Shown in pieces: positions 1,638 through 60,673 of a stretch of 64,000 nucleotides of DNA. The stretch's first letter is position 1; every line of letters starts with the position of its first letter. Location: assembly GCA_035546295.1 (NCBI GenBank), contig DATKBT010000125.1:333056-397055 (forward strand). The letters run 5' to 3'. Position numbers and translations under genes: made by a program. The notes below the pieces were generated by a model. That model searched no databases. It was given only the letters and a program-made list of their open reading frames with translations, and was not told the DNA's origin. Source of the DNA: Thermoanaerobaculia bacterium (GTDB lineage Bacteria > Acidobacteriota > Thermoanaerobaculia > Multivoradales > Multivoraceae).

Positions 1638-1938
1638 GAGCGCGACCCTAGCAGCCGCGGTCGCGCTCCCGCGGGCTGGGTTTCGAGCGCGATGGGCCCA
1701 GGATGCAGGGCGCATCTCGCGATGCGCCCACGCCGCCGAAACCCACCGGAGACGCCGTTTCTGTAGACTCGGCACCGTCGGCGACTTTCCTCTCAAGTGG
1801 TTGGAGTGGATAGACTTCGCTCGACCTGACGATCATGCCCAAGCTCTTGTCAGCAGGGGGCTCCCCGTGCGCCCCGCACCGTTCGTGTGCGACGACTCGT
1901 CGCATTGCTGATCCGCCCGAGGCGTGGGGGGGTGGGGC

Positions 1939-4158
1939 ATGAGCAGCCTCTGGTCCAGATTCGTTCGCGACTACCAGTCCGCCGGCGACGAGTACTATCG
2001 TGAGGGGAAGCTGAATCGGGCCGCCGAGATGTACGCGCGCGCCGGCAACTGGCTGGAGGCGGCGAAGGCGTCGTGCCGGGCCGAACAGCTCGATCGCGCG
2101 CTCGAGTATCTGGACAAGGGAGAGGATCACGAGGCCGCGGGCGATCTCCTCGCTGCGCAAGGCGCGGAGCGCGAGGCGGTGCGCTACTACGAGCGCGCGG
2201 GCGCGTTCTGGAAGGCGGGCGAGGTCGCGCTGCGCACCAAGCAGCCGCTGCGGGCGGCGGCGCTGTTCGAGAGGAGCGGGGGGTTCTCGCGGGCCGCCGA
2301 GTGCTACGAGCAGAGCGGCGATCTCGATTCGGCGATCCGCGCGTGGGCTGGCGAGTCGGACAAGCTGGAGAAGGCGGGAGAGGTCACGGACGCGCGACGG
2401 ATCGACGGCCACCGAGCGCTGCTGCTGGCCCGGGTCGGGCGGCCGGCCGAGGCTGCGCAGCTCTGCGAGCAGCTGAACCAGCGGGCGCAGGCCGCCGAGA
2501 TGTGGGTGCGGGCGGGCAAGCTCGAGGTGGCGATCGAGCGTTTCCTCGAGGCCGGGGAGGCGCGGCGGGCGGCGGCGTTGCTCGATCGCGTGCCCTCGCT
2601 CGAGCCCGCGCTGAGGGCGCGGGTGCTGTCGGAGTCGGCGCGTCATCGCGAGGCTGCCGAGATCTACCTGGAGCTCGGCCTCCTCGACGACGCCGCCGAA
2701 GCCCTGGAGGCGGCGGGAGACTGGCTGCAATCGGCAGAGCTGAGACGGCGCAACGGCGATCTATCGCCCGCGGCCGACCTCTACTTCCGCGCCGGCGCCT
2801 ACGCGACCGCCGCCGAGTGCTTCGCCGAGATCGGGGTGCTCGATCGTGCCGGCGAGGCCTACGCCCGCTCAGGCCGGCCCGATCGCGCGGCGAGCTGCTA
2901 TCTCGCCGTCGGCCGGGCGCTCGACGCCGCCCACATGTTCCTGGCGGCCGAGGACCAGGACTCGGCAGCGAGCGCGCTGCGCGCCATCGAGGCGGACGAC
3001 CCCGACTACCGGACCGCGACGCTGATGCTGGCGCCGCTCCTGATCCGGGCCGGCGAGGGGGGAGCCGCGCTCGACCGGCTCGACCTGGTGCCCGGCGACG
3101 AGGCCACCGACGAGGAGGTCCTCGACATCAGCTACTGGCGTGCCCGCGCGCTCGAGCTCCTCGGAGAGCTCGAGGCGGCCTGCAGCGAGCTCGACACCGT
3201 GGTCCGACGAGCGCGCGATCATCGCGACGCGGCGAAGCGGGTCCTCAAGATCCGGACGATGCTCGGCCACCGCCGCGAGGGCGCCCGGCGATCGGTGGCG
3301 GGAGCGCTCGAGCCGGGATACCTGCTCCAGGGGCGCTACGAGATCCAGGACGAGATTGGCCGGGGCGGCATGAGCCGGGTCTACCGCGCACTCGATACCC
3401 AGCTCGGCGAGCGCCTCGCGGTCAAGGTGCTCTACCCGACGGCGATCGACGCCGAGAAGGCCGAAGGCCGGATGGTCAACGAGGTCCAGCTCTGCCGTCG
3501 GATCACCCATCCCAACGTCGTCCGCATCTACGACTTCGGTCGCTTCGAGTGCGGCCTGTTCGTGACCATGGAGCTGCTCGACGGGATGACCCTCGCCGAT
3601 CTGCTCGCGGTCGAGGGGCGGCTGCCGATCAAGCAAGTCCATCCGCTGCTGGAGGAGGTGCTCGAGGGGCTCGCGGCCGCCCATCGGCACCGGGTGGTCC
3701 ACCGCGATCTCAAGCCGGCCAACATCGCAGTGACGCCGTCGTGCGCGAAGATCATGGACTTCGGCATCGCGTGCCTCGAGGACGGCGACAGCTCGCTGAC
3801 CCGGACCGGCCAGGTGGTCGGCTCTCCGATGTACATGTCACCGGAGCAGATCCAGGGCTTCGATCTCGACGGCCGCTCGGACCTCTACTCCTTCGGCGTG
3901 CTGGCCTTCACCCTGCTCGCCGGACACGAGCCGTTCCGGGCGTCGACGCCCACGGCGGTCTCGCTCAAGCACCTGCAGGAGCCTCCTCCCGATTTGCGGG
4001 TGATCCGGCCGGACCTGGACGAGGGCTGGCACCGGTTCGTGACCAGGCTGCTCGAGAAGGACCGCAGCTTCCGCTTCGACACGGCCGAGGAGGTGCTCGC
4101 GGAGTTGCGGACGCTGCCGGTCGGGGTGCGCGGCGCTGCCCCGCGTTCGGGGGTTTGA
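1939..4158 (+). CDS. Ser/Thr protein kinase with a long N-terminal degenerate helical-repeat domain
   Basis: The C-terminal Hanks kinase motifs are present: GRGGMSRVY, AVKVL, HRDLKPANI, DFGIA, SPEQ. The N-terminal ~470 aa are ~20-aa A/G/R-rich repeats (xYxRAGxxxxAAExY). A GGGGTGGGG run precedes the ATG. Confidence 0.85.
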   Translation: MSSLWSRFVRDYQSAGDEYYREGKLNRAAEMYARAGNWLEAAKASCRAEQLDRALEYLDKGEDHEAAGDLLAAQGAEREAVRYYERAGAFWKAGEVALRTKQPLRAAALFERSGGFSRAAECYEQSGDLDSAIRAWAGESDKLEKAGEVTDARRIDGHRALLLARVGRPAEAAQLCEQLNQRAQAAEMWVRAGKLEVAIERFLEAGEARRAAALLDRVPSLEPALRARVLSESARHREAAEIYLELGLLDDAAEALEAAGDWLQSAELRRRNGDLSPAADLYFRAGAYATAAECFAEIGVLDRAGEAYARSGRPDRAASCYLAVGRALDAAHMFLAAEDQDSAASALRAIEADDPDYRTATLMLAPLLIRAGEGGAALDRLDLVPGDEATDEEVLDISYWRARALELLGELEAACSELDTVVRRARDHRDAAKRVLKIRTMLGHRREGARRSVAGALEPGYLLQGRYEIQDEIGRGGMSRVYRALDTQLGERLAVKVLYPTAIDAEKAEGRMVNEVQLCRRITHPNVVRIYDFGRFECGLFVTMELLDGMTLADLLAVEGRLPIKQVHPLLEEVLEGLAAAHRHRVVHRDLKPANIAVTPSCAKIMDFGIACLEDGDSSLTRTGQVVGSPMYMSPEQIQGFDLDGRSDLYSFGVLAFTLLAGHEPFRASTPTAVSLKHLQEPPPDLRVIRPDLDEGWHRFVTRLLEKDRSFRFDTAEEVLAELRTLPVGVRGAAPRSGV

Positions 4159-14629: not shown

Positions 14630-16888
14630 TTGCCGCTCGAACCGCCTCCGAAGGCGCCAGATCCGAACGCAGCGATCCCGCCCTGGCGGATCTGGGTCGA
14701 CACCGGCGGGACCTTCACGGACTGCATCGGGGTCGCTCCCGACGGCGAGCGGCGCCGGCTCAAGGTCCTCAGCTCGAGTGCGCTGCGCTCGCGCGTGACC
14801 GAACGATGGCGCGAGGGAGCAGCGGAGTGGGTCCGTCTCGAGCGCAGTGGGGGCCGAATCGACGACCTGCTGGCCGGCGGCCGTCTCCGCCGGCTCGGGG
14901 CTGCGGCTGAGACTCCCGGTGCCCTGATCGTCGCGTCGCGCGTCGGCGGAGCCCTCGAGCTCGACCCCGCGGCGCAGGAGCTGCCCGACGCGGGCGCCAC
15001 GGTCGAGATCACGTGGCCGGAGCCGGCGCCGATCCTGGGCGTACGCTGGCTCACCGGGACTCCGATGGGTGCGGAGCTACCGGCGATCGAGCTCCGGCTC
15101 GCCACCACCCGCGGCACCAACGCTCTGCTGGAACGCCGCGGGGTCGAGTGCGCCCTGTTCATCACCCGCGGCTTCGCCGACCTGCTCCTGATCGGCAATC
15201 AGGCCCGTCCTGACATCTTCGCGCTCGACGTGGTGAAGCCGGAGCCCCTGCAGGCGGCGACCGTCGAGGTCGACGAACGGCTCGCCGCGGACGGTGCGGT
15301 GGTGCGCCAGCTCGAGCTGACCGGCCTGCGCGAGGAGGCGGCGCGCCTGGTCGAGGCCGGCGTGCGCAGCGCCGCGGTCGCGCTCCTGCACAGTTATCTC
15401 GATCCGGAGCACGAGCGGCAGGTGGGCGAGGCGCTGGAGCAGCAGGGCTTCGTCCATGTCAGCCTCTCTTCGTCGCTGGCGCCCCTGATCAAGATCGTCC
15501 CCCGGGCGCAGACGGCGGTGGTCGATGCCTATCTCGGGCCGATCATCGACGAGTACCTGGGGCGCATCGCCGCGGCGGTGGGCGGGGCGGGACGGACCTA
15601 CGTGATGACTTCCGCCGGTGGACTGTCGTCGGCCCAGGACTATCGAGCCAAGGACAGCCTGCTGTCGGGGCCGGCGGGAGGGGTGGTCGGCGCCGCGGCG
15701 GCGGGCCGGGCGGCGGGCTTCGAGACCCTGCTGACCTTCGACATGGGGGGCACCAGCACCGACGTCGCACGCTTCGACGGCGACTACGCCTACCGCTTCG
15801 AGCATCGAGTCGGCGACGCCGAGATCGTCGCGCCGACGCTCTATGTCGAAACGGTGGCAGCGGGCGGCGGGTCGATCTGCGAGCTGACCGAGGGGCGCCT
15901 GACCGTGGGGCCGCACAGCGCGGGCGCCGACCCGGGCCCCGCCTGCTACGGCGCCGCAGGACCGCTGTGCGTCACCGACGTCAACCTGCTGCTGGGGCGC
16001 ATCGAGCCGGCGCGGTTCGAGATCCCGATCGACGCGACGGCGGCTTCGCACGCCGCGGATCGCGTCCTCGCCGGGCTCTCCGGCGCCCGCGACGAGCTGC
16101 TCTCCGGCTTCCTGCTGATCGCCAACGAGCGCATGGCCGACGCCATTCGCCGGGTTTCGATCCAGGAGGGCTTCGATCCGGCGCGGTGCGCGCTGGTGGC
16201 CTTCGGCGGCGCCGGGCCGCAGCACGCCTGCGCGATCGCCGAGCTGCTCGGCACGCCGACCGTGCTCGTGCCGCGCGACGCGAGCCTGCTCAGCGCGCTC
16301 GGCCTGGGGGCCGCGCGCATCGAGCGCTTCGCGCATCGCCAGGTGCTCGAGCCGCTACGCGAGGCGGTCGCCTCCGGCACGCTCTCGGCGATCGTCGACG
16401 AGCTCGCCGCCGAGGCGGCCAGGGCCCTCGCCGGCGAAGGGGGGCGCGGCGACGTCGGCGCGCGGCGCTCGATCGCGCGCTGCCGCTACTCGGGCCAGGA
16501 GTCGACACTCGATCTCGACGTCGACGATCCTGCAACGCTCGCGAGCGAGTTCGAGAGCCAGTACCAGCGGGTGTTCGGCGATCGGCCGGCGGGGCGCGAG
16601 GTCGAGCTCGAGTCGCTGCGCGTCGTGGTGGCGCACAGCGAGCCGGAGGCGGCGGCTTCGGTCGCCGCAATCGACGGGACGTCGCCCGCCAGCGCCGCCG
16701 CGGGGGAGCGCGAGATCTGGTTCGACGGAAAGCGGCTGGTGACGCCGGTGGTGCCGCGGGAGGCGATCGGCGAGGAGCCCGTCGCGGGCCCGGCCCTGGT
16801 CACCGAGCGCCACAGCGTGACCGTGGTGGAGCCGGGCTGGAGCGTGGCCGCGCACGCTCCCTCCGGCTGCCTGGTCGTCAGCCGCTGA
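14630..16888 (+). CDS. hyuA: hydantoinase/oxoprolinase family protein, A subunit
   Basis: TTG start 4 nt after the upstream stop. WRIWVDTGGTFTDC N-terminal signature; 752 aa. Confidence 0.85.
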   Translation: MPLEPPPKAPDPNAAIPPWRIWVDTGGTFTDCIGVAPDGERRRLKVLSSSALRSRVTERWREGAAEWVRLERSGGRIDDLLAGGRLRRLGAAAETPGALIVASRVGGALELDPAAQELPDAGATVEITWPEPAPILGVRWLTGTPMGAELPAIELRLATTRGTNALLERRGVECALFITRGFADLLLIGNQARPDIFALDVVKPEPLQAATVEVDERLAADGAVVRQLELTGLREEAARLVEAGVRSAAVALLHSYLDPEHERQVGEALEQQGFVHVSLSSSLAPLIKIVPRAQTAVVDAYLGPIIDEYLGRIAAAVGGAGRTYVMTSAGGLSSAQDYRAKDSLLSGPAGGVVGAAAAGRAAGFETLLTFDMGGTSTDVARFDGDYAYRFEHRVGDAEIVAPTLYVETVAAGGGSICELTEGRLTVGPHSAGADPGPACYGAAGPLCVTDVNLLLGRIEPARFEIPIDATAASHAADRVLAGLSGARDELLSGFLLIANERMADAIRRVSIQEGFDPARCALVAFGGAGPQHACAIAELLGTPTVLVPRDASLLSALGLGAARIERFAHRQVLEPLREAVASGTLSAIVDELAAEAARALAGEGGRGDVGARRSIARCRYSGQESTLDLDVDDPATLASEFESQYQRVFGDRPAGREVELESLRVVVAHSEPEAAASVAAIDGTSPASAAAGEREIWFDGKRLVTPVVPREAIGEEPVAGPALVTERHSVTVVEPGWSVAAHAPSGCLVVSR

Positions 16889-16907: not shown

Positions 16908-18536
16908 TCATCCGCCGAGGGTGTCGACCTCGAGCTCCTCGGCGGCGTAGCGGGCGCGCAGGACCTTCTTGTCGAACTTCCCGACGCTGGTCTTCGGCAC
17001 CTCGTCGATGAAGGTCCAGCGCTCGGGCAGCCACCACTTGGCGACCCGGTCGCCCAGGTAGTCCCGCAGGTCGGGGGCGCCGACCTTGGATCCCTCCTTG
17101 CGCACGACGCAGGCGAGGGGGCGCTCGTCCCAGCGCTCGTCGGGCACGCCGACCACGGCGGCCTCGACCACATCGGGGTGTCCCATCAGCTCGTTCTCGA
17201 GGTCGACGGACGAGATCCACTCGCCGCCGGACTTGATCACGTCCTTGGCGCGGTCGGTGATCTGGACGAATCCGTTGCTCTCGATCGAGCCGACGTCGCC
17301 CGTGCGCAGCCAGCCGTCGTGGAACTTCTGCGGATCGTCGTCGAGGTAGTACGATCCGGTGACCCAGGGGCCGCGGGCCTCGATCTCGCCGACCGCCTCG
17401 CCGTCCCACGGCAGCTCCTCGCCGGCGTCGTCGACGATGCGCAGCTCGATGCCGGGGATCACCCGTCCGGTCTTGGCCTTCCAGTCCATCTCCTGCTCGG
17501 GGGGCGTGCCCCTGGGCGGGATCGCGGCCGCACCCAGCGGGCTGGTCTCGGTCATCCCCCAACCCTGGATGATCTCGACGCCGTAGCGGTCGTGGAAGGC
17601 CTCCATCAGAGCGCGGGGCACCGCCGAGCCGCCGCACAGCACGCGGCGGAACGAGCTGAAGTCGACGCCCCTGCCCTCGGCGTAGCGGAGCACGTCGTTC
17701 CAGATCGTCGGCACTGCTCCGCTGACGGTCGGCCGCTCCTCGGCGATGATCCGACACAGCGGCTCGGCCTGGAGGAAGCGGTCGGGCAGGATGAAGTCGG
17801 CTCCGACCATCCAGCAGGCGTGGGGGAGCCCCCAGGCGTTGGCGTGGAACATCGGCACGATCGCCAGGATGCGGTCGTGCTCGTTGAGCGCCAGCACCGC
17901 GCCCGAGACCACGCCGAAGGCGTGCAGCACCGAGGAGCGATGGCTGTAGACGACCCCCTTCGGGTTGCCGGTGGTGCCGCTGGTGTAGCACATCGCGCAG
18001 GCCGACCGCTCGTCGATCTCGGGAAACGACTCCTCGGTGGAGCGGCCCGCGATCAGCTCCTCGTAGCGATGGAGCTGGGCGGGATGGCCCTCGAGCGCCG
18101 AGGCGTCGCCGTCGCCGACGACCACGAAGTGCTCGACCCCCTCGAGCTCGTCGAGGACCCGCGCGAGGAGCGGGATCAGCGTGTCGTCGACCAGGATGAC
18201 GCGGTCCCCGGCGTGGTTGACGACGTAGGCGAGCTGCTCGGGGAAGAGACGGATGTTGAGCGTGTGCAGCACCGCCCCCATGCAGGGGACGGCGAGGTAG
18301 GCCTCGAGGTGCTCCTGGTTGTTCCAGGAGAAGGTCCCAACGCGCTCACCGGGCTCGACCCCGAGCTCCCGGAGCCCGTGGACCAGTTGGCAGGCGCGGT
18401 CGGCGACCTCCCGGAAGGAGGCGCGGCGGGCGCCGTCCTGTTCCACGGTGACGACCTGCGAGTCGCCATGGATCCTGCGGCCGTGGCGAAAGATCATGGG
18501 CAGGGTCAGCGGATAGTCCTGCATCGTGCTGAGCAT
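16908..18536 (-). CDS. long-chain fatty-acid--CoA ligase (AMP-forming)
   Basis: [15 protein letters not shown]-binding motif, GWGMTETS, and [14 protein letters not shown]. It is close to T. thermophilus LC-FACS along the whole length. Confidence 0.9.
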
Positions 18537-18652: not shown

Positions 18653-20239
18653 GTGGAGGAATGGGAACGGGTGTCGCAGGACCGCCTCGAAGGCGCCGCT
18701 TCCGACCCGATCGAGGCCGAGCTGTTCGGCAACCGGCTCTCGTCGATGGCGCGCGAGATGGGCGAGATGCTGCGCCGGATGGCGCTCTCGACCAACGTCA
18801 AGGAGCGTCTCGACTTCTCGTGCGGGATCCTCGACGCCGACGGCCGGCTGGTGGTCAACGCGCCGCACATCCCCGTGCACCTGGGCGCGCTCGGCGAGTG
18901 CGTGCGCTCGGTGGAAGCGCACCTCGGCCTCGAGGAGGGGGACGTCGCCGTCACCAACCATCCGGGCTGGGGGGGCTCGCACCTCCCGGACGTCACCGTG
19001 ATCTCGCCCGTCTTCGCCGAGGGTCGTCGCCTCGGCTATACGGCCAGTCGGGCCCATCACGCCGAGTTGGGGGGGATCCGGCCCGGCTCGATGCCGCCCG
19101 ATGCCGGCTGCCTCGCCGAGGAGGGAGTGGTGATCGCCCCGATGCGTCTGTTCCGGCGCGGCGCGGCCCGCTGGGAGGAGCTCGAGTCGATCCTGAGCGG
19201 CGGCCCGCACCCCTCGCGCTCGGTCGCCGACAACCTGGCGGACCTGCGCGCACAGCTCGCTGCCAACCGCCGGGGGGCGGCACAGCTCGCCTCGCTGGTG
19301 CAACGAAACGGCGCCGACGTCGTGCTGCGGTCGATGGCCGAGCTGCGCTCTCGCTCGGCGCGCGTGTTGAGCGCGGCGCTGGTGAGCTTCGGGGATCGGC
19401 GCGTCCAGGCCGTCGAGCGGCTCGACGACGGCTCGCCGCTCGCGGTCGCGATCGAGGTCGCCGGCGGCCGGGCGCGGATCGACTTCACCGGCAGCGCGCC
19501 CGTGCACCCCGGCAACCTCAACGCGACGCCCGCGATCGCGCGCAGCGCGGTCCTCTATGTCCTGCGACTGCTCGTCGATCGGCCCCTGCCGCTCAACGAG
19601 GGGCTGCTCGACCCGGTCGAGATCCACGTGCCGCTGGGAATCCTCGATCCCCCGTTCCCCGAGGATGCGCGCGAGGCCCCCGCGGTCGTCGGGGGCAACG
19701 TCGAGACCAGCCAGCGGATCGTCGACACCCTGATCAAGGCGCTCGGGCTCGCCGCATGCGGGCAGGGGACGATGAACAACACGATCTTCGGAGATGAGAC
19801 CTTCGGCTACTACGAGACGGTGTGCGGCGGCGCCGGCGCCACCGCGCGGCGGGACGGCGCGAGCGCCGTACACACGCACATGACCAACACTCGGATCACC
19901 GACCCCGAGATCCTCGAGCAGCGCTACCCGGTGACCCTGGAGCGCTTCGCGATCCGGCGCGGCTCGGGGGGCGCGGGACGGCGGCGCGGCGGCGACGGTG
20001 CGATCCGCGAGATCCGCTTCCACCGGCCGCTGAACCTGTCGCTGCTCACCCAGCACCGGATCGAGGCGCCCTTCGGCGTCGAGGGGGGGGAGCCGGGGGC
20101 GCGTGGCCTCCAGACGCTGATCCGCGCCAGCGGCGAGCGGGTCGAGCTGCCCTCGATCGCGGGCGTCGAGGTCTCGGCCGGGGATCGGCTGTTGATCGAG
20201 ACGCCCGGCGGCGGCGGCTGGGGACGCTCCGAGGGATGA
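18653..20239 (+). CDS. hyuB: hydantoinase B/oxoprolinase family protein
   Basis: 528 aa. DPIEAELFGNRLSSMAREMGEMLRRMALSTNVKERLDFSCGI is the HyuB N-terminal signature. Confidence 0.85.
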   Translation: MEEWERVSQDRLEGAASDPIEAELFGNRLSSMAREMGEMLRRMALSTNVKERLDFSCGILDADGRLVVNAPHIPVHLGALGECVRSVEAHLGLEEGDVAVTNHPGWGGSHLPDVTVISPVFAEGRRLGYTASRAHHAELGGIRPGSMPPDAGCLAEEGVVIAPMRLFRRGAARWEELESILSGGPHPSRSVADNLADLRAQLAANRRGAAQLASLVQRNGADVVLRSMAELRSRSARVLSAALVSFGDRRVQAVERLDDGSPLAVAIEVAGGRARIDFTGSAPVHPGNLNATPAIARSAVLYVLRLLVDRPLPLNEGLLDPVEIHVPLGILDPPFPEDAREAPAVVGGNVETSQRIVDTLIKALGLAACGQGTMNNTIFGDETFGYYETVCGGAGATARRDGASAVHTHMTNTRITDPEILEQRYPVTLERFAIRRGSGGAGRRRGGDGAIREIRFHRPLNLSLLTQHRIEAPFGVEGGEPGARGLQTLIRASGERVELPSIAGVEVSAGDRLLIETPGGGGWGRSEG

Positions 20240-23426: not shown

Positions 23427-24449
23427 CTAGGTCGACTGCCGGTGGCTGGCGTGCTCGGCCAGCCAGCGCTCGGCGTCGATCGCGGCCCGGCAGCCGGATC
23501 CGGCGGCCGTGATCGCCTGACGGTAGCTGGGGTCCATCACGTCGCCGGCCGCGAACACGCCAGGGACGCGAGTGGCGGTGGTCGGGTGCGCGACGTCGAG
23601 GTAGCCCTGCGGGTTCGACGCGAGGCTCTCGGTGAACAGGTCGGTGTTGGGGCGATGCCCGATCGCCGTGAACACGCCCTGGCACTCGAGCGTGGAAGTC
23701 TCGCCGGTGACCGTGTCTTGCAGCCGAACTGCCGACACGCCATTCTCGCGGTCGCCGACGATCTCGGTCACGACCGCGTTCCAGCGCCACGCGATCTTCG
23801 GGTGGGCGCGGGCGCGGTCCTGCATGATGGCGGAGGCGCGCAGCTGGTCGCGGCGGTGCACGACCGTCACCTTGGTGGCGAACTTGGTGAGGAAGAGCGC
23901 CTCCTCCATCGCGGTGTCGCCGCCGCCGACCACGACCAGCTCCTTGTCGCGGAAGAAGAAGCCGTCGCAGGTCGCGCACGCGGAGACTCCGTAGCCCATC
24001 AGCTCGAGCTCCGACGGGATGCCGAGCTGCTTGGCGCTGGCGCCGGTGGCGATGATCACCGCGTCGGCGGTGTAGCTGCCGCCGTCCGTGGCGAGCCGGA
24101 ACGGCCGCGAGCCGAGGTCGACCGAGATCACCGTCTCGAACTCGACTTCGGCCCCGAACCGGCGGGCCTGATCACGCATCTTGTCGATCAGCTCGGGACC
24201 CAGGATGCCATCCGGGAAGCCGGGGTAGTTCTCCACGTCGGTGGTGATCGTCAGCTGGCCTCCCGGCTGCACACCCTCGAAGAGCAGCGGGGCCAGGTCT
24301 GCGCGAGCGGCATAGAGGGCGGCGGTGAGCCCAGCGGGGCCGCTGCCCAGGATCACCAGACGATGGTGGGAGTCCACCGGACGGTGGTGGGAGTCCACCG
24401 GACGGTGCAGAGAGTCCTGCGGTTCTTTCGGCTGTCGCGCCTCGTTCAC
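23427..24449 (-). CDS. trxB: thioredoxin-disulfide reductase with a 28-aa N-terminal extension
   Basis: LVILGSGPAGLTAALYAARA, the CATC redox motif (ACATCDGFFF) and GGGDTAMEEA are present. GTG start with AAGGAG upstream. The extension holds the tandem repeat HRPVDSH x2. Confidence 0.9.
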   Translation of the reverse strand: MNEARQPKEPQDSLHRPVDSHHRPVDSHHRLVILGSGPAGLTAALYAARADLAPLLFEGVQPGGQLTITTDVENYPGFPDGILGPELIDKMRDQARRFGAEVEFETVISVDLGSRPFRLATDGGSYTADAVIIATGASAKQLGIPSELELMGYGVSACATCDGFFFRDKELVVVGGGDTAMEEALFLTKFATKVTVVHRRDQLRASAIMQDRARAHPKIAWRWNAVVTEIVGDRENGVSAVRLQDTVTGETSTLECQGVFTAIGHRPNTDLFTESLASNPQGYLDVAHPTTATRVPGVFAAGDVMDPSYRQAITAAGSGCRAAIDAERWLAEHASHRQST

Positions 24450-24606: not shown

Positions 24607-25584
24607 TCAGTTGGCGCGATCCGGTCGCGTGTCGAGCGCCAGCGTCTCGACGATCGCCACGGCGTTGGCCGCAGTGAGAGCGAGGTTGTCGGCGAGCAGC
24701 CACAGCCAGACGACGCCGGGGCGTTCTCCTGGGATGACTGCGCCGAGCAGCACGTCCTCGCGGGAGGCGGTGTCGATCGGACCTGCATCGTCGTGCGGGG
24801 GCGCGACCAGCCGCGGAGAGCTGAGCAGCCGATGCCGGATCTCGGCGGGGTCCGCGCTGCGGGCGAGCTCGACCCGCGCGAGGATGCCGAGACCGTGGAA
24901 GACGCCAGCGTAGAGGATGCCGAAGGAGGCGTCGAGCTCCTCTCCGCGCACCGCCGACAGCTCCCCCGCGAGCCCGGCGGGATCGGGAGCGAGGCGGCCA
25001 TCGGCGGAGGGAGGCAGGAGGTTGAAGGCGAGCTGGGCGCCGAGCACGGAAGCCGGCGGCACCTCCTGAAAGGCGAGCAGGGAGCGCGCCTGGTCGAGGA
25101 CCTCGTCGAGCGCGCCGCGCCCGCGCACCGAGACCGGCAGCAGCACGGTCGAGGTCACGCGGGCCGGCTCGAGCTCGCGCAGTGCGGCGAGCGCGTAAGA
25201 GAGCACGATGGTGATGGCGTTGGCAGCGACCAGGGATCGCGCACCCTCGCTGGCGGTGTTGACTCCGCCTACCAAGGGCTCGCCGCCGCCGCAGACGGCC
25301 TCGGCGGCGACCTGTAGCACGATCGGACGGTCGTCTGCGCTCGGCAGCAGGGCCTCCAGGTCGGCGGCGGTGGCGCCGCAGGTGACCAGCAGGTCGAGCT
25401 CGCCGAGATCGGCGGCGGCCGCGTCCTCGACCAGCGCCGGGGATCGGCCGATCTCCGTCACCGTGCCGATCTCGTCGGCGCTGCCGAGGAGCACCCACTC
25501 GGCGCTCGGGCCGAGTGCGCCGCTGAGCCGCTCGCGCAGCTCCTGGCCGAGCAGCGATGTCGGGTGGTAGAGGCCGATCTTCAC
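24607..25584 (-). CDS. aspartate-semialdehyde dehydrogenase-fold protein lacking the catalytic Cys/His (putative pseudoenzyme)
   Basis: GTG start overlaps the pssA stop (GTGA) and has a GAGGAAGG ribosome-binding site. Blocks LDLLVTCGATAADLEAL, GARSLVAANAITIVLSYAL and C-terminal VWLWLLADNLALTAANAVAIV align to Asd. NAI replaces NCT, and the CHSQ block is absent. Confidence 0.6.
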   Translation of the reverse strand: MKIGLYHPTSLLGQELRERLSGALGPSAEWVLLGSADEIGTVTEIGRSPALVEDAAAADLGELDLLVTCGATAADLEALLPSADDRPIVLQVAAEAVCGGGEPLVGGVNTASEGARSLVAANAITIVLSYALAALRELEPARVTSTVLLPVSVRGRGALDEVLDQARSLLAFQEVPPASVLGAQLAFNLLPPSADGRLAPDPAGLAGELSAVRGEELDASFGILYAGVFHGLGILARVELARSADPAEIRHRLLSSPRLVAPPHDDAGPIDTASREDVLLGAVIPGERPGVVWLWLLADNLALTAANAVAIVETLALDTRPDRAN

Positions 25585-26408
25585 GACAGACCTTCCTCGG
25601 TGGGAGCTTCCGGCTCCCCCTCGCCGCTGCTTTCGGACGCCTCGGTCTCGTCTGCCGCGCCGCGTTGCCGCACGACGCGGCGCAGCACGCCGCCGAGGGG
25701 GCCCGAGAGCGCATAGACCCCGCTGACGGTGAGGAAGAAAGCCGGCGGGTTGAGCACCAGGAGCAGGACCACCACCGTGATCGGCAGCGCGATCCGGAAG
25801 CTCCAGCGTCTCCTCGGGTCGAGCTCCTTGAAGGACCAGTAGCGGAAGGTCGACACCATCAGCAGCCCGAGGACCACGGGGGCGGTGAGCAGCAGGAGTC
25901 GCACCAGGTCGCCCTTGGCGCCGATCTCGTCGCAGTAGTAGAGGATCGAGCCGAGGGCGCCCGCCGCCGCGGGAGCCGGGAGGCCGACGAAGTAGCGCTT
26001 GTCGAGGATGCGGGTCTGGACGTTGAAGCGAGCCAGCCGGGTGGCTGTGCAGACCAGGTAGAACAGCGGGCAGAGCCAGCCGATCCGCCCCGCGTCCTGC
26101 AGCCCCCACGAGTAGACGAGGAAGGCCGGCGCGACGCCGAAGGTGATGACGTCGGCGAGCGAGTCGTACTCCCGCCCGAAGTCGCTCGCAGTCTGCGTGA
26201 CCCGGGCGAGGCGGCCGTCGAGGGTGTCGACGAAGGCGGCGACGAAGACGAGCAGGATGGCGAACTGGTACTCCCCCCGCAGCCCGCTGACCAGGCTGAA
26301 GAAGCCGAGCAGGATGTTGCCGATGGTGATCAGGCTGGGGAGCAGGTACGCCCCCCGCCGCAGGCGCGCCTTCCTGCGTTCGAGCCGAGCTCCGGGGGGC
26401 TCGGTCAT
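25581..26408 (-). CDS. pssA: CDP-diacylglycerol--serine O-phosphatidyltransferase (CDP-alcohol phosphatidyltransferase family)
   Basis: DTLDGRLAR...DSLADVITFG CDP-OH phosphotransferase motif; ATG overlaps the psd stop (ATGA). Confidence 0.85.
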   Translation of the reverse strand: MTEPPGARLERRKARLRRGAYLLPSLITIGNILLGFFSLVSGLRGEYQFAILLVFVAAFVDTLDGRLARVTQTASDFGREYDSLADVITFGVAPAFLVYSWGLQDAGRIGWLCPLFYLVCTATRLARFNVQTRILDKRYFVGLPAPAAAGALGSILYYCDEIGAKGDLVRLLLLTAPVVLGLLMVSTFRYWSFKELDPRRRWSFRIALPITVVVLLLVLNPPAFFLTVSGVYALSGPLGGVLRRVVRQRGAADETEASESSGEGEPEAPTEEGLS

Positions 26409-27058
26409 CCGCCCTCCCCGACGGTGCCAGGACCGGGGCGCGCCATGGGGGTCAGCCCGGCGCGCACGGACTGCCCGCGCTCGACCAGCGGCTCGTAGCC
26501 AGGGGGCAGCAGGAGGTCGACTCGCGATCCGAACTTGATGATGCCGAGGTGCTCTCCCCGCCGCACCCGATCGCCGCGATCGAGGTAGTGCACCACCCGG
26601 CGCGCCACCAGCCCCGCGATCTGGCGCACTCCCACCAGCGAGCCGTCCTGCTGGCGCAGCACCGTGAGGTGGCTCTCGTTGAGCGCCGCCGCCCGCGGAT
26701 CGAAGGCGGCGAGCTTGCGGCCTCGCTTGCCGGCCGAGAGCACGACTTCGCCGGTCGTCGGCGAGCGCTGGACGTGGACGTCGAACACCGACAGGAAGGT
26801 GGCGATGCGCAGGAGCTGGCCGGGCGCCACCTCGCCGTCCTCCAGCCATTCGACGCCGATGACCCGGCCGTCGGCCGCCGACAGGATCACGTCGGCGTCC
26901 CCTTCGAAGGTGCGATGGGGGTCCCGGAAGAACAGCAGGACGAGCACGCCCACGCCGAGGACGGCCAGCATCGCCCATGGCATTCCCAGCCAGCCGAGGA
27001 CGGCTCCGGCGACGACGAAGGGAACGACGAAGGGCCAGCCCTCGGGTGCGAAGCTCAC
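26405..27058 (-). CDS. psd: phosphatidylserine decarboxylase (short, archaeal-type proenzyme)
   Basis: 217 aa; GIIKFGSRVDLLLP carries the G-S cleavage/pyruvoyl site; GTG start. Confidence 0.85.
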   Translation of the reverse strand: MSFAPEGWPFVVPFVVAGAVLGWLGMPWAMLAVLGVGVLVLLFFRDPHRTFEGDADVILSAADGRVIGVEWLEDGEVAPGQLLRIATFLSVFDVHVQRSPTTGEVVLSAGKRGRKLAAFDPRAAALNESHLTVLRQQDGSLVGVRQIAGLVARRVVHYLDRGDRVRRGEHLGIIKFGSRVDLLLPPGYEPLVERGQSVRAGLTPMARPGPGTVGEGG

Positions 27059-27104: not shown

Positions 27105-27332
27105 TCAGACGGTGGCCGAGGCTTCGTGCTCCCGGACCAGGCTCGCCATGCGGTCCTTGAGGGCGAGCTTGTGGACCTTGATCTTCTTGGTTTCCGCCTC
27201 GTCTTCCTGCGACAGGGACGCCTTCTCCAGGATGGCTTCGAGCCGGGACTCGTACTCCTGGTGCTCCTGGTGGAGACGACGGAATTCCTCGTCGTGCGCG
27301 AGTAGCTCCTGGCGGACGACCTCTTGATTCAT
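27105..27332 (-). CDS. DUF465 (YdcH-like) small protein
   Basis: 75 aa; EEFRRLHQEHQEYESRLE...TKKIKVHKLALKDRM matches the DUF465 pattern. Confidence 0.7.
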   Translation of the reverse strand: MNQEVVRQELLAHDEEFRRLHQEHQEYESRLEAILEKASLSQEDEAETKKIKVHKLALKDRMASLVREHEASATV

Positions 27333-38700: not shown

Positions 38701-38775
38701 TGGGGCGTCGCCAAGTGGTAAGGCACCGGACTTTGGATCCGGCATTCGGGGGTTCGAATCCTCCCGCCCCAACCA
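38701..38775 (+). tRNA. tRNA-Gln (anticodon TTG)
   Basis: Cloverleaf: acceptor TGGGGCG/CGCCCCA, anticodon stem CCGGA/TCCGG with loop CTTTGGA, T-loop TTCGAAT, encoded CCA. It is close to E. coli tRNA-Gln(UUG). Confidence 0.9.
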
Positions 38776-55098: not shown

Positions 55099-55492
55099 GG
55101 TGGGCCGGAGGATCGGACCGGGTCGCGGCGGCGACAGCCGTCGAGGAAAGTCCGAACTCCAACGGGCAGCATGCTCGCCAACCGCGAGGCGCGGCGACGC
55201 GACGGAAAGTGCAACAGAGAGCAGACCGCCCGCGGCTTCGGCCGTGAGGTGAGGGTGAAACGGTGCGGTAAGAGCGCACCGCTCGGCCGGCGACGGACCG
55301 AGGCACGGCAAACCCCATGCGGAGCAAGACCAAATAGGGAGCACGGTCGAGCGGGCCGCCTGTCCCGCCAGCGCCTTCGGGCGCTCCGTTCTCCGGGTAG
55401 GTCGCTCGAGCCGTCGAGCAATCGGCGGCCCAGAGGAATGACCCGGGCGCTTCGGCGCAACAGAATTCGGCTTACGAGATCCTCCGGTTGCT
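55099..55492 (+). ncRNA. rnpB: RNase P RNA, bacterial type A
   Basis: GAGGAAAGTCCG(A/G)ACTCC, GGGTGAAACGGTGCGGTAAGAGCGCACC, CAAATAGGG and the 3' ACAGAATTCGGCTTA. The P1 helix is CCGGAGGATC/GATCCTCCGG. Confidence 0.88.
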
Positions 55493-55915: not shown

Positions 55916-56707
55916 ATGGTCAAGACGGTCTTCAAGCGTGGCAGCGACCGGAAGGCGGGATCAACCGACTTCTCGATCGAGGTTCCGGCGGGGGAGTATC
56001 TCTTCCGGGAGGGGGACCTCGGGACCGAGATGTTCATCGTCCAGGATGGACGAATCGAGATCGTGAAGGCCGTCGACGGCGAGGAGCATCAGCTCGCCGT
56101 GCTCGAGAAGGGGGACTTCTTCGGCGAGATGTCGGTGCTCGAGGAGCTGCCGCGCACCGCGTCGGCGAGGACGCTGGCCGGCAGCCGGCTGCTGCAGATC
56201 AACGGGTCGACCTTCGATCAGATGCTGCACGACAACCCCGAGATCGCGGTACGCATGATGCGCAAGCTGTCGAGCCGACTGCGCCGGACCGAGAACCTCC
56301 TGCAGGACGTCCTCGGGCGGGCGGCGCCGGCGGCCGCGCACGAGGCGCCCGGGACGCCGATGACCGACACGCAGCGGCCTTCTTCGACCCAGCGGATGGT
56401 CCACAGCGAGACCGGCGTCGAGCTGTTCTTGTCCTCGGGCTCCGAGTCGACGGTCGGCCGCCACGACCCGGTGACCGGCATCCATCCGGACATCGACCTC
56501 TCCGAGGTCGACAGCAGCCGCTCGACCAGCCGTCGCCACGCCAAGGTCTATCGCCGGGGCGGCAAGTTCTTCCTCACCGAGGAGATCGGCACCACCAACG
56601 GGACCTTCGTCAACGGGATCCGGCTCGAGACCGGCGTTCCCTGCGAGCTCAAGACCGGGGACGAGGTGCAGTTCGGTCTCGTGCGAATGGAGTTTCGCGT
56701 CGACTGA
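55916..56707 (+). CDS. cyclic-nucleotide-binding (CAP effector) domain fused to an FHA domain
   Basis: The cNMP fold has GDFFGEMSVLEELPRTASARTL. The FHA motifs are VGR..D, SRRHAKV and TNGTFVNG. Confidence 0.8.
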   Translation: MVKTVFKRGSDRKAGSTDFSIEVPAGEYLFREGDLGTEMFIVQDGRIEIVKAVDGEEHQLAVLEKGDFFGEMSVLEELPRTASARTLAGSRLLQINGSTFDQMLHDNPEIAVRMMRKLSSRLRRTENLLQDVLGRAAPAAAHEAPGTPMTDTQRPSSTQRMVHSETGVELFLSSGSESTVGRHDPVTGIHPDIDLSEVDSSRSTSRRHAKVYRRGGKFFLTEEIGTTNGTFVNGIRLETGVPCELKTGDEVQFGLVRMEFRVD

Positions 56708-56754
56708 TCGATGACGCGACCGCCTCCAATCCGGCGGCGACGGATGGCCTCCTC

Positions 56755-58842
56755 TTGACTCCGAGCGGAGGCGCCGTGGGGTCACCCGCCGAGCTCGACC
56801 TCGGCGCGCCGATCGAGTCCGTGCGCGGCGTCGGTCCGGCACGGGCCGCTGCGCTGCGGGCCGCCGGCATCGGCACCGTCGGAGCCCTCCTCTCCGTGCT
56901 CCCGAGGGCCTACCAGGACCGCCGGACCCTCTCGACCGTTCGCGACATCCTCGCCGGCGGCGTCGACTCGGCGACCCTGCTCGTGCGCCTGACCTCGCTG
57001 TCGCGGCGCCGGATCCGGCGGCGAGGAGCGAGCCTGGTCGAGGGCAAGGCCGTCGACTCGACCGGCGAGCTGCGAGCCGTCTGGTTCAACCGGCCGTACC
57101 TCGCCGACCAGGTGGATCCCGCAAGCGAGGTCCTGCTGCACGGCCGGATCCGCCGCAGCGCGCGTGGCGTCGAGTTGGTCAACGCCTCGGTGACGACCGT
57201 CGACGGCGCCGCGCCGCGCACCTGCGCGCGCCGGATCGTGCCGGTCTACCCGCGGGTGGGCGAGGTCGCCCCGAGCACCGTCTCGCGCCTGGTCGCGGCC
57301 GTCCTCGGCGATGGGCGAGGGCTTCCGATCAGCGATCCGATCCCCTTCTCCCTCCGCCAGAAGCGTGGTCTCCCTTCGCTGTGCGAAGCCCTGATCGGCC
57401 TGCACCGGCCGCTGCCGCGCGCCGACGCGGCATTGCTCGAGCGCGGCGAGTCGCCCGAGCACCAGCGCCTCGCCTACGGCGAGCTGCTCCTGCAGCAGCT
57501 CGCCCTGGCGCGTGCGCGAAGGGCCCATCGCGCTCTCCCCAAGCCGCACCGCTACGCGATCGACGATCGCCTCAGAGCCGCGGTCCGGAGCATGCTGTCC
57601 TTTCCCCTGACCGGCGCGCAGCAGCGCGTCCTCGGCGAGCTGGTCGCCGATCTCGAGCGCCCCGAGCCGATGCTCCGCCTGCTGCAGGGGGACGTCGGCT
57701 GCGGCAAGACCGTGGTTGCGGGCCTGCTCCTTGCGGTGGCCCTCGAAAACCGACTCCAGGGCGCCTTCATGGCGCCGACCGAGCTCCTGGCCGAGCAGCA
57801 CTTCCGGACCCTGAGCCGGCTCTACGACGGGCGCTACCGCGTCGACCTGCTGACCGGCTCGACCGCCCAACCGCGGCTCCGGCAGAGGATCGCGAGCGGA
57901 GAGAGCGATCTGGTGGTGGGCACCCATTCGCTGATCACCGAGGGACTAGACTTCGCGCGGCTCGGGCTGGCAGTGATCGACGAGCAGCACCGCTTCGGCG
58001 TGTCGCAGAGGCGCCGGCTCGAGCGCAAGGGTGTGCGACCCGACGTGCTGGTGATGACTGCGACGCCGATCCCCCGTTCCCTGGCGATGACCGCTTACGG
58101 GGACCTCGACCTCTCGGTGATCGACGAGCTGCCGCCTGGGCGCCGGCCGCCGGCCACCGAGCTGGTGCCCCGCGCCCGGCGCCGGCGGGTGTTCGCGGCC
58201 GTCGAGAGCGAGCTGCGCGAGGGCGGGCAGGCCTTCGTCGTGTTCCCGCTGATCGCGGACAGCGACGAAATCGACGCCGGAGCCGTGGAGGGGCTGGGCG
58301 AGGAGTACCGTCGACGGTTCGCCGCGTACGGCGTCTCGGTGGCGACCGGCCAGACGTCGCCCGCCGAGCGCGAGCGGAGCATGGAAGCCTTCGCGGCCGG
58401 TCGCTGCCGTGTGCTGCTCGCCACCACCGTGATCGAGGTGGGCGTCGACGTCGAGGCCGCCGGTTGCATGGTGATCGAAAGCGCCGAGCGTTTCGGGCTG
58501 GCCCAGCTCCACCAGCTTCGCGGGCGGGTCGGCCGGGGATCGGGCCGCTCGGCGTGCTGGGCGGTGCACGGAGGCCTGACCGACGCCGCACGCCGGCGCC
58601 TGGAGGTGTTTCGCCAGACCAGCGACGGCTTCCGGATCGCGGAGGCCGATCTCGAGCAGCGCGGTCCGGGCGAGCTGCTGGGGACCCGCCAGGCCGGCTG
58701 GAGCGAGCTGCGGATCGCAGATCCGGTGCGCGATCGCGCCCTCCTGGCGGCCGCGCGCGACGACGCCCGGGATCTGCTCGAGGAGCTGTCCGACGAGCTG
58801 ACCGCAGGGCAGCTTGGCGCGTCGGCGGCGGAGGTGCGGTGA
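56755..58842 (+). CDS. recG: ATP-dependent DNA helicase RecG
   Basis: TTG start in frame; LLQGDVGCGKTVVA, DEQHRFGV, and the wedge and TRG regions; about 695 aa. Confidence 0.9.
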   Translation: MTPSGGAVGSPAELDLGAPIESVRGVGPARAAALRAAGIGTVGALLSVLPRAYQDRRTLSTVRDILAGGVDSATLLVRLTSLSRRRIRRRGASLVEGKAVDSTGELRAVWFNRPYLADQVDPASEVLLHGRIRRSARGVELVNASVTTVDGAAPRTCARRIVPVYPRVGEVAPSTVSRLVAAVLGDGRGLPISDPIPFSLRQKRGLPSLCEALIGLHRPLPRADAALLERGESPEHQRLAYGELLLQQLALARARRAHRALPKPHRYAIDDRLRAAVRSMLSFPLTGAQQRVLGELVADLERPEPMLRLLQGDVGCGKTVVAGLLLAVALENRLQGAFMAPTELLAEQHFRTLSRLYDGRYRVDLLTGSTAQPRLRQRIASGESDLVVGTHSLITEGLDFARLGLAVIDEQHRFGVSQRRRLERKGVRPDVLVMTATPIPRSLAMTAYGDLDLSVIDELPPGRRPPATELVPRARRRRVFAAVESELREGGQAFVVFPLIADSDEIDAGAVEGLGEEYRRRFAAYGVSVATGQTSPAERERSMEAFAAGRCRVLLATTVIEVGVDVEAAGCMVIESAERFGLAQLHQLRGRVGRGSGRSACWAVHGGLTDAARRRLEVFRQTSDGFRIAEADLEQRGPGELLGTRQAGWSELRIADPVRDRALLAAARDDARDLLEELSDELTAGQLGASAAEVR

Positions 58843-60008: not shown

Positions 60009-60469
60009 ACGCGCTCCAGCAGACCCGCCTGATCGTCGGATTCGGCTTCCTGGCTGCCCTCGGGGGTCTCGTCGCCGCGGTCCTGGGCCGTGCCATCGAG
60101 CCGCCTGCGGTGAGCGACGCGGCTGCCGTCCACGTGATGTGGGCGCTGGTCGCCGGGCTCGGTCAGCTCCTGGCCCAGTGTTGGATCGCGCTCTTCGGCT
60201 GGGGCACCCTGCGCCTGCTCGCGCGTCGGGGGCGCCGTGTGCCGGCGGGGCGGCGCGCCGTGCTGCTCGGCGTTCCACTGGGGGTCGTCGTGCTGATCGC
60301 GGTGGCGATCTGGATCGGTATCCAGGGCTACACCTCGGGGCGTCCGGCTCCACTGCACGCGGCGGTCGGTTGGGGGACCGCGGTCGCCTGCCTGGTGGCG
60401 CTCGCCGTCGAGTGGCGAGCGCTCGAGACGACCGAGCGGGCGGTGGCGCAGGCGGATCGAGAGGCCTGA
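60005..60469 (+). CDS. hypothetical 4-TM membrane protein
   Basis: GTG start overlaps the glycosyltransferase stop (GTGA); 154 aa; no recognisable motif. Confidence 0.45.
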   Translation: MNALQQTRLIVGFGFLAALGGLVAAVLGRAIEPPAVSDAAAVHVMWALVAGLGQLLAQCWIALFGWGTLRLLARRGRRVPAGRRAVLLGVPLGVVVLIAVAIWIGIQGYTSGRPAPLHAAVGWGTAVACLVALAVEWRALETTERAVAQADREA

Positions 60470-60673
60470 GCCACCGACGCAGCAGAGGGCCTGCTGTTCG
60501 CTATCATCTGCGGCGTAGGTCGAGCCTCTCCCCTGGGCGTGCGGCGGCTCGTCCCAGACCGGTCGAGCCCCGCCGACGCCTTCCCAGACTCGTAGGGGCG
60601 CGGCGCAGGCGGACCGCGGTGCGCTCCAGAGCGAGCAGCCGTTACCCGGCGGAACCCCCGCCCTCACCCTGGC

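Follow-up and report, generated by a model that had tools for sequence, protein, structure and literature searches.

The synthesis of phosphatidylethanolamine (PE) by phosphatidylserine synthase (PssA) and phosphatidylserine decarboxylase (Psd) is textbook two-enzyme biochemistry, and we know of no model of bacterial PE synthesis that includes an accessory protein. Genes for short-form Psd and type II PssA form two-gene psd-pssA operons, of which the psd and pssA described here are ordinary members. The locus differs from these operons by a conserved, translationally coupled third cistron, which we refer to as asdL, and, in Thermoanaerobaculia, also by a gene for a DUF465 protein in front.

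Two groups of proteins are close enough to the product of this third cistron, AsdL, for a direct comparison. Aspartate-semialdehyde dehydrogenase (Asd, EC 1.2.1.11; TIGR01296 asd_B type, such as V. cholerae Asd2, 2qz9/2r00, and the M. tuberculosis enzyme, 3tz6) has its fold, domain order and dimerisation domain in common with AsdL. The nearest named relatives, however, are the USG-1/Usg proteins (E. coli Usg, b2319, NF005957; the P. aeruginosa homolog, PDB 2hjs, NF004224), which likewise show the two-domain fold of Asd and are of uncharacterised function, usg being named merely a 'putative' ASADH (PMC6358828). A third, more distant point of comparison is the decarboxylase PanD, whose pyruvoyl formation needs PanZ, a GNAT-fold protein (PMC3496974, PMC4410942).

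Organization of the psd-pssA-asdL locus

On the minus strand of the window (the whole 64-kb stretch of DNA that was analysed), psd, pssA and asdL follow each other in this order, and both junctions are 4-nt overlaps that can be read directly from the sequence (Table 1), as the earlier note had claimed. The first cistron encodes a Psd with a hydrophobic N-terminus that forms a membrane anchor and with the FGS self-cleavage/pyruvoyl motif at residues 176–178. Against the NCBIfam PRK05305-type models this protein scored 110–191 bits, the best sub-model (191.5) remaining below its cut-off of 225. Among the matches listed, KFGSR was present in 53 of 77 Psd-containing reading frames of related loci. 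PssA (pI 9.05) spans the membrane several times, and its C-terminal tail is acidic; it carries the canonical D-x2-D-G-x2-A-R-x8-G-x3-D-x3-D motif at residues 61–86 and scored 80.8 bits with PF01066 and 133.1 bits with TIGR00473, above the cut-off of 107 for the latter. AsdL is soluble and acidic (pI 4.46), and its gene has a GC3 of 0.887. The DUF465 gene, whose end lies 46 nt ahead of psd, is conserved along with these genes and is possibly a fourth member of the cluster. A search of the window with V. cholerae Asd2 yielded no match to a bona fide asd.

Table 1. Features of the psd-pssA-asdL locus, with positions in the window
Feature	Position	Strand	Basis
DUF465 (YdcH-like) small coiled-coil protein, 75 aa	27105..27332	-	Pfam PF04325, 27.9 bits
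psd, short-form phosphatidylserine decarboxylase proenzyme, 217 aa	26405..27058	-	Pfam PF02666, 117.7 bits (cut-off 22)
Overlap of psd stop and pssA start, ATGA (translational coupling)	26405..26408	-	Read from sequence
pssA, type II (CDP-alcohol phosphatidyltransferase) phosphatidylserine synthase, 275 aa	25581..26408	-	PF01066, TIGR00473
SD-like GAGGAAGG before asdL start	25591-25598	-	Read from sequence
Overlap of pssA stop and asdL start, GTGA (translational coupling)	25581..25584	-	Read from sequence
asdL, Asd/USG-1-fold paralogue, 325 aa	24607..25584	-	Profile, structure and alignment comparisons
Remnant of Rossmann glycine loop, HPTSLLG (residues 7-13), replacing GATGxVG	25546..25566	-	Alignment
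Asn122-Ala123, equivalents of E. coli Asd Asn134-Cys135; nucleophile lost	25216..25221	-	Alignment
Phe229-His230-Gly231-Leu232; Leu232 equivalent to catalytic His274	24889..24900	-	Alignment

Fold of AsdL and fate of the Asd residues

Profile, structure and alignment comparisons agree with the earlier note in giving AsdL the two-domain Asd fold, comprising a Rossmann domain and a dimerisation domain, and its AF2 model is compact and confident. Both AsdL and Asd contain a Q-x-A-F-N motif and a C-terminal DN(L/V)xxGAAxNA helix, and the retained dimerisation domain suggests that AsdL is dimeric. Scores against Asd models were low: AsdL reached 15.3 bits with PF02774 (cut-off 26), did not match PF01118, and obtained 18.6–42.4 bits with the NCBIfam models (TIGR01296, NF011456 and others), whose cut-offs lie at 223–628 bits.

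Every residue by which the Asd reaction is defined has gone from AsdL: the nucleophile (Cys), the base (His), and Arg267, Arg102 and Glu241. AsdL also has neither the glycines that bind NADP nor the S-x-R-S motif for the 2'-phosphate. Position 267 is occupied by Tyr in AsdL, and the Glu241 segment has been deleted in the window's clade. The earlier note had correctly described the N-terminal Rossmann motif as degenerate and had reported that the His-bearing RCHSQ segment is replaced by GALDEV; the loss of this His stands, but its placement was wrong. Indeed, RCHSQ aligns with VFHGLG (residues 228–233) of AsdL, while GALDEV (residues 157–162) aligns with the G-x5-EL segment of Asd that directly follows the SGAG loop. 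His230, located two residues upstream of the His274 column, is a hallmark of the family. Taken together, the absence of Cys, His, Arg267, Arg102, the Glu241 segment and the glycines for dinucleotide binding supports the view, already put forward in that note, that AsdL would be incapable of Asd thioester chemistry; NADP binding has probably been lost as well.

The AsdL family, collected at E<=1e-30, comprised 983 clusters (50% identity), and residues were tallied over an alignment of 268 members. The nucleophile column contained Pro in 232, Ala in 32, Ser in three and Thr in one of these proteins and Cys in none, so the loss of Cys claimed for the window's protein extends throughout. The same claim for the catalytic His holds for AsdL but only for about half of the family, as 128/268 members retain His in the His274 column. 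A second His, two residues before this column, was found in 262/268 members, and the Asn134 column was occupied by a third in 214/268. Of the Rossmann glycines, the first was kept in 66, the second in 16 and the third in 244 of the 268 proteins, whereas the Arg267 column was Gln in 210 and the Arg102 column a gap in 263. Ser152, Gln184 and Asn188 were invariant or nearly so, and the family is further marked by SPHP in the Cys loop and by FH(x)H on the His strand. Judging from these tallies, the loss of Asd residues is a defining trait of a large acidobacterial family and not peculiar to the window's gene. The window's clade represents the most degenerate form of this family.

USG-1 is the closest structural and profile neighbour of AsdL. 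Against the USG-1 models AsdL scored 42.4 bits (NF004224, cut-off 284) and 39.3 bits (cut-off 273), and two relatives reached 82 (P0014) and 157 bits (P0264), still below the cut-off of 284; as controls, E. coli Usg and the P. aeruginosa protein scored 683 and 579 bits, respectively. The two groups have several changes in common: Arg267 is replaced by Gln (the consensus in the AsdL family), Arg102 and Gln162 are lost, and in neither group does the nucleophile column hold Cys; E. coli Usg has Ser there, and the P. aeruginosa protein has Ala, directly preceded by a Cys. In contrast, the Rossmann GATGxVG is intact in the USG-1 proteins and lost in both the AsdL family and the window's protein. 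The gene context likewise differs (usg-truA in E. coli versus psd-pssA-asdL here), and neither E. coli usg nor PA3116-type genes are linked to PE genes. As several Asd residues are already missing from both E. coli Usg and its P. aeruginosa counterpart, these alignments make AsdL look less like an Asd that was disabled recently than like a USG-1-like lineage that has degenerated further.

Conservation of asdL and its neighbourhood

Related loci were retrieved from species-representative genomes using a three-block degenerate DNA pattern, which is biased towards the majority Thermoanaerobaculia clade and does not match the window's own clade. Among the matches listed, asdL directly followed pssA in 83 of 89 informative species-level loci, comprising 68 with the complete psd-pssA-asdL order and 15 in which pssA-asdL had no adjoining psd (psd was off the locus in six and no upstream psd match was found in nine). 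In five further loci listed psd and asdL were direct neighbours, and in a single one (L025), which nevertheless encodes a clear family member, neither psd nor pssA lay beside asdL. The 4-nt overlap between pssA and asdL recurred in 63 of 88 related loci, and in 73 of 77 informative loci, again among the matches listed, the neighbour immediately upstream in the same orientation was a DUF465 gene.

The linkage of the third gene to psd and pssA on which the earlier note had relied is thus conserved in relatives, and it reaches distant Acidobacteriota: those of the Ca. Angelobacter/Ca. Solibacter type carry the same overlapping trio within different flanks (lptE-holA downstream). In some lineages, L058 and L082 among them, psd is the only one of the two genes beside asdL; in others, such as L041, it is pssA. 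A divergent asdL in a low-GC MAG (L011) adjoins a DUF465 gene and an msbA-like gene, psd and pssA being absent, and the asdL reading frame is broken in a few loci, such as L040. No fusion with pssA or psd was found among the over-long family members P0095, P0159, P0248 and P0130, whose extra segments contained no Pfam domain.

Median identities to the window's proteins were 33% for AsdL, 53% for PssA and 55% for Psd, and AsdL was the least conserved of the trio in 66/66 loci among the matches listed. That AsdL evolves faster than PssA and Psd fits a non-catalytic protein. The GC3 value and the size of the family, together with purifying maintenance across the phylum, mark asdL as a real, selected gene.

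Possible role of AsdL and alternative explanations

Based on gene order and translational coupling, we tentatively suggest that AsdL is a non-catalytic accessory subunit of the module that converts phosphatidylserine to PE, a reading that we hold with slightly less than even confidence. Translational coupling would lead to AsdL being made in fixed proportion to PssA and usually also to Psd, after which the protein might dock at the cytoplasmic face of membrane-bound PssA and/or pro-Psd, where it could stabilise, regulate or mature these enzymes; the interaction, the partner and the effect are all conjectural. The partner is ambiguous, as asdL occurs without pssA in some lineages and without psd in others. 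In agreement with the earlier note, which knew of no such protein, full-text literature searches did not find a description of a PssA/Psd accessory or third operon gene of this kind. The ambiguity of the partner, the neighbourhoods of L025 and L011, the lack of linkage of usg and PA3116-type genes to PE genes and the absence of fusions count against an accessory role, as does the fact that, to our knowledge, Psd enzymes elsewhere mature without a helper. The near-invariant polar residues His230, Ser152, Asn188 and Gln184 would, moreover, be compatible with a remaining site for catalysis or ligand binding.

The closest precedent would be the action of PanZ on PanD, in which an enzyme-fold accessory promotes the self-cleavage of a pyruvoyl proenzyme. 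PanZ/PanM, which has an enzyme fold but works independently of the ancestral catalysis, promotes and regulates how a self-cleaving pyruvoyl decarboxylase matures (PMC3496974, PMC4410942), and Psd is, like PanD, a pyruvoyl proenzyme. This analogy is functional only, given that the PanZ fold is unrelated to that of AsdL and that PanZ binds CoA, whereas the nucleotide site of AsdL is seemingly lost; operon coupling to psd is the one basis on which a PanZ-like action on Psd might be imagined. In a stronger form of the proposal, which we regard as unlikely, AsdL would be an obligatory third subunit of PE synthesis in Acidobacteriota: a 'dead' Asd/USG-1 dimer devoid of cofactor would bind to PssA, pro-Psd or both, possibly in concert with the DUF465 protein, and would govern the self-cleavage of Psd or the hand-over of phosphatidylserine.

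Alternatively, AsdL could be the acidobacterial USG-1/Usg, having the same general function without being specific to PE, and the pssA operon would then provide constitutive expression linked to envelope growth. We likewise consider this doubtful: adjacency to pssA/psd persists across classes of the phylum while all other neighbours change, it is kept down to the 4-nt overlap, the Rossmann glycines, present in both USG-1 proteins, are gone from the AsdL family, and members of that family score 42–157 bits on the USG-1 model (cut-off 284). It is rather improbable, too, that AsdL is a neo-functionalised enzyme or ligand binder, whose rebuilt pocket would process or detect a head group resembling a phospho-amino acid, for example phosphatidylserine, CDP-diacylglycerol, serine or an envelope lipid. 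Such a pocket would be made up of His230, Ser152, Gln184 and Asn188 and, in most relatives, of the His found in the Asn134 and His274 columns. In many relatives as many as three His surround what was the active site (262/268, 214/268 and 128/268), which, together with the near-invariance of Ser152, Gln184 and Asn188, favours this idea, and on chemical reasoning the phosphatidylserine head group may resemble aspartyl phosphate. However, the window's clade lacks two of the three His (Asn122 and Leu232 instead), the ancestral amino-acid/phosphate binders Arg267, Arg102 and the Glu241 segment are gone, and the fast evolution of the protein is unusual for an enzyme. Furthermore, most of the conserved residues are common to true Asd and USG-1 and may therefore be structural.

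That asdL is a decaying, functionless remnant is highly improbable. AsdL is the least conserved of the trio and the window's clade the most degenerate of the family, as would be expected of a remnant, but full-length frames that align over nearly the whole protein were present in most recovered species-level loci, down to ~26–37% identity, and the coding GC3 signature, the conserved translational coupling and the confident, compact AF2 model all argue against decay. A bona fide second Asd, to which homology, the fold and the name 'aspartate-semialdehyde dehydrogenase' given to family members by JGI/IMG would point, is already contradicted by the sequence and can be considered practically out of the question: Cys is absent from the nucleophile column in all 268 proteins, AsdL also lacks the catalytic His, Arg267, Arg102 and GxxGxxG, and its scores of 15–42 bits lie far under the curated cut-offs of 26–628.

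In most of the genomes sampled from a major soil phylum, a third gene overlaps pssA by 4 nt, which suggests that a component or regulator of the PE pathway has gone unrecognised. The JGI/IMG label amounts to a systematic misannotation of the AsdL family, which would inflate the lysine, threonine and methionine biosynthetic capacity inferred for Acidobacteriota MAGs. Residues that are key to Asd are likewise missing from USG-1/Usg, which curated models still name Asd, and a function established for AsdL could therefore help to explain this long-uncharacterised family. If AsdL did prove to be an obligatory subunit, it would be the first dedicated accessory protein known for bacterial PssA/Psd and would offer an initial clue to function in the USG-1 branch of the Asd superfamily.

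Gene chain in the window

The genes for phosphatidylserine decarboxylase (psd) and phosphatidylserine synthase (pssA) and a third ORF, here called asdL, lie one behind the other on the minus strand of the window, whose G+C content is 70-72%. The chaining of the three by 4-nt overlaps, described in an earlier note made from the sequence alone, is present at both junctions, with ATGA common to the psd stop and the pssA start and GTGA common to the pssA stop and the asdL start. Both internal starts are preceded at 4-8 nt by Shine-Dalgarno-like purine runs, and the GTG start of asdL is right because GC3 (coding composition) drops from 0.887 within the ORF to 0.49 in the same frame upstream. Psd matched PF02666 (117.7 bits), and its residues 176-178 form the FGS self-cleavage motif. 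PssA, a basic membrane protein (pI 9.05) with a complete CDP-alcohol phosphatidyltransferase motif, scored 133 bits, above the curated TIGR00473 cut-off of 107. AsdL is soluble and acidic (pI 4.46) and has no convincing transmembrane segment; its sequence is identical to that of P0001, annotated as a 'hypothetical protein' in a Thermoanaerobaculia (Acidobacteriota) MAG.

Features of the window
Feature	Position	Strand	Remarks
Ser/Thr protein kinase	1924-4158	+	long N-terminal TPR region; signalling, unrelated to the trio
hydantoinase/oxoprolinase A-like gene	14630-16888	+	
AMP-binding (acyl-CoA synthetase-like) gene	16908-18536	-	between the A-like and B-like genes
hydantoinase/oxoprolinase B-like gene	18653-20239	+	
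trxB ORF	23427-24449	-	predicted thioredoxin reductase
asdL	24607-25584	-	325 aa
pssA	25581-26408	-	275 aa
psd	26405-27058	-	217 aa
DUF465 (YdcH-like) gene	27105-27332	-	75 aa; stops 46 nt 5' of psd
tRNA-Gln(UUG)	38701-38775	+	ordinary housekeeping RNA
RNase P RNA, bacterial class A	55106-55490	+	261 bits; ordinary housekeeping RNA
cNMP-binding and FHA domain protein	55916-56707	+	signalling, unrelated to the trio

Near its N-terminus (about 24360-24420), the trxB ORF contains a direct repeat, HRPVDSH HRPVDSH HR, just ahead of the FAD-binding GSGPAG; the repeat either arose as a short in-frame tandem duplication or signals a true start farther downstream. Elsewhere, about 4 kb (56700-60700) include the highest G+C of the window (0.75 at 58-60 kb) and long overlapping ORFs on both strands; the GC3 filter gave no gene assignment there, and the signal changes frame at about 58.8 kb.

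An Asd-like fold without the Asd residues

As a single sequence, AsdL reached only 15 bits with PF02774, under the cut-off, and 19-42 bits with the NCBIfam equivalogs of aspartate-semialdehyde dehydrogenase (Asd, ASADH), below their cut-offs of 223-628. A profile built from 21 homologues gave strong Asd-family matches in the PDB, including the P. aeruginosa USG-1 homolog 2hjs (E 2e-42) and V. cholerae Asd2 (E 2e-39). We derived residue equivalences from a MAFFT alignment (A4) of AsdL with E. coli Asd, V. cholerae Asd2, E. coli Usg and the P. aeruginosa protein. The three blocks previously aligned to Asd were correct, as was the loss of the nucleophile: Asn134-Cys135 of E. coli Asd correspond to Asn122-Ala123. 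The catalytic His is likewise missing, with Leu232 at His274, but not where it had been placed, since GALDEV aligns with the G-x5-EL segment downstream of the SGAG loop, and RCHSQ with VFHGLG, whose His230 lies two residues before the catalytic position. Moreover, Arg267 is replaced by Tyr225 and Gln162 by Leu149, GxxGxxG reads HPTSLLG, and both Arg102 and the Glu241/Lys segment are absent. These missing residues uphold the earlier view that AsdL cannot perform Asd chemistry, which, judged from its sequence, would be impossible for this protein.

AsdL is one member of a family, not an isolated case. Searched with a profile, 1.84 billion cluster representatives yielded 983 proteins at E<=1e-30, a number that rose to 3624 at E<=1e-10. 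Cys is absent from the nucleophile column of all 268 full-length members, which have Pro (232), Ala (32), Ser (3) or Thr (1) there; at the Arg267 column, 210 carry Gln, and the first and second Rossmann glycines are kept in 66 and 16, respectively. Decay is graded: Ca. Angelobacter/Ca. Solibacter-type members retain G-A-S/A-T-x-K-G, the Glu of the E241 segment and FHxH, most Thermoanaerobaculia members show HP(T/N)xLxG, SPHP and FHG(L/V), and the small clade of the window's AsdL (AANA, FHGL) is the most degenerate. Divergent Cys-less members (NPHP/NPNP, Gln at the Arg267 column, FHGY/FHTY) also occur in 'uncultured Eubacteriales' MAGs (L011:4180-5487, minus strand; L035:2-865), so that either this label is doubtful or the family reaches beyond Acidobacteriota.

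Conservation of the gene order

The order (tsaB-rimI-)DUF465-psd-pssA-asdL is common to all contigs with homologues at 35-66% identity, often with trxB as the next gene. A degenerate three-block DNA pattern, run on one genome per GTDB species, retrieved at least 120 stretches, nearly all from MAGs of Thermoanaerobaculia or other Acidobacteriota; as the pattern favours the majority clade, the following counts, all among the matches listed, are biased and do not amount to a census. Of the 89 loci in which asdL was clear and the upstream sequence sufficed, 68 have the trio sought in relatives. A further 15 have pssA-asdL, with the psd region beyond the locus (6) or no psd match upstream (9); loci without psd upstream include L041, L026, L039, L042 and L072. 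In some subclades pssA is missing from between the other two: psd directly precedes asdL in five loci (L058, L067, L073, L082 and L089), for example with a 4-nt overlap in L082. Neither gene adjoins asdL in one (L025). Such departures from the trio narrow what can be deduced from its order. Between the pssA stop and the asdL start, the overlap is exactly 4 nt in 63/88 loci, and in 76/88 the two are no more than 15 nt apart. Distant Ca. Angelobacter/Ca. Solibacter-type members keep the overlapping trio with different flanks (msrA or a response regulator upstream, lptE-holA downstream), so the conserved unit is the trio and not the wider neighbourhood. In two of these (L132:5001-6580 and L133:5001-6586), a further 4-nt overlap joins asdL to lptE, which in turn abuts or overlaps holA; the resulting psd-pssA-asdL-lptE-holA order links the trio to genes for outer-membrane/LPS assembly.

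Among the matches listed, 73/77 informative loci have DUF465 immediately 5' of the cluster and in the same orientation. In L011 (38% G+C), it directly abuts the divergent asdL homologue (NPHP, FHGY), which is also flanked by an msbA-like ABC transporter and has no psd or pssA beside it; DUF465 may thus belong to the same functional unit as a fourth member, or may be AsdL's real partner. By eye, galU and a candidate gene for an outer-membrane protein were also recognised in this MAG.

Relation to USG-1 and proposed role

NF004224, the Pseudomonas USG-1 model, was in every case the top hit for the acidobacterial proteins, yet their scores of 42, 82 and 157 bits fall well short of its cut-off of 284. 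Controls for the E. coli Usg model NF005957 and for NF004224 scored 683 and 579 bits. Usg and USG-1 share with the family Gln at the Arg267 column (Tyr225 in the window) and also lack Arg102 and Gln162; Usg (L134:4637-5650, minus strand) has Ser at the catalytic-Cys column, while 2hjs has Ala there, with Cys at the preceding position, and Asp where Asd has its catalytic His. Both, however, keep the Rossmann motif. Because of these matches and residues, AsdL is best seen as a lineage near USG-1 that has degenerated further, although not a USG-1 member by the curated cut-off. Both models are named 'aspartate-semialdehyde dehydrogenase' although Usg and USG-1 have Gln for Arg267, a non-Cys residue at the catalytic-Cys column and no Arg102. 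Family proteins are called 'hypothetical', 'Asd/ArgC dimerization domain-containing protein' or, wrongly, 'aspartate-semialdehyde dehydrogenase'.

AsdL is co-translated with PssA and usually also with Psd. We tentatively favour a non-catalytic accessory of the phosphatidylserine-to-phosphatidylethanolamine (PE) module, which would bind PssA at the membrane and/or pro-Psd and act without catalysis of its own; pyruvoyl proenzymes recruit helpers of unrelated enzyme folds, such as PanZ for PanD (PMC3496974, PMC4410942). That AsdL has a general USG-1-like function and merely shares the operon seems rather unlikely. Our literature search found no described function for Usg or USG-1, and usg is termed only a 'putative' ASADH (PMC6358828). 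A neo-functionalised His-based enzyme or ligand sensor is unlikely as well; in its favour, the -2 His (His230) occurs in 262/268 members, and the catalytic-His column is still His, typically as FHxH, in 128/268.

AsdL evolves faster than its neighbours, being the least conserved product in 66/66 loci (median identity to the window proteins 33% vs 53% for PssA and 55% for Psd). It is nevertheless under selection, with a full-length reading frame kept in most recovered loci, and a non-functional relic is highly improbable; a true second Asd, given the lost residues, is scarcely credible. No account of an Asd-like gene accompanying psd/pssA turned up in full-text literature searches. While Asd/USG-1 paralogues as such are known, the well-supported genomic association of one with psd and pssA is new, and from it we infer a role for AsdL in PE synthesis.
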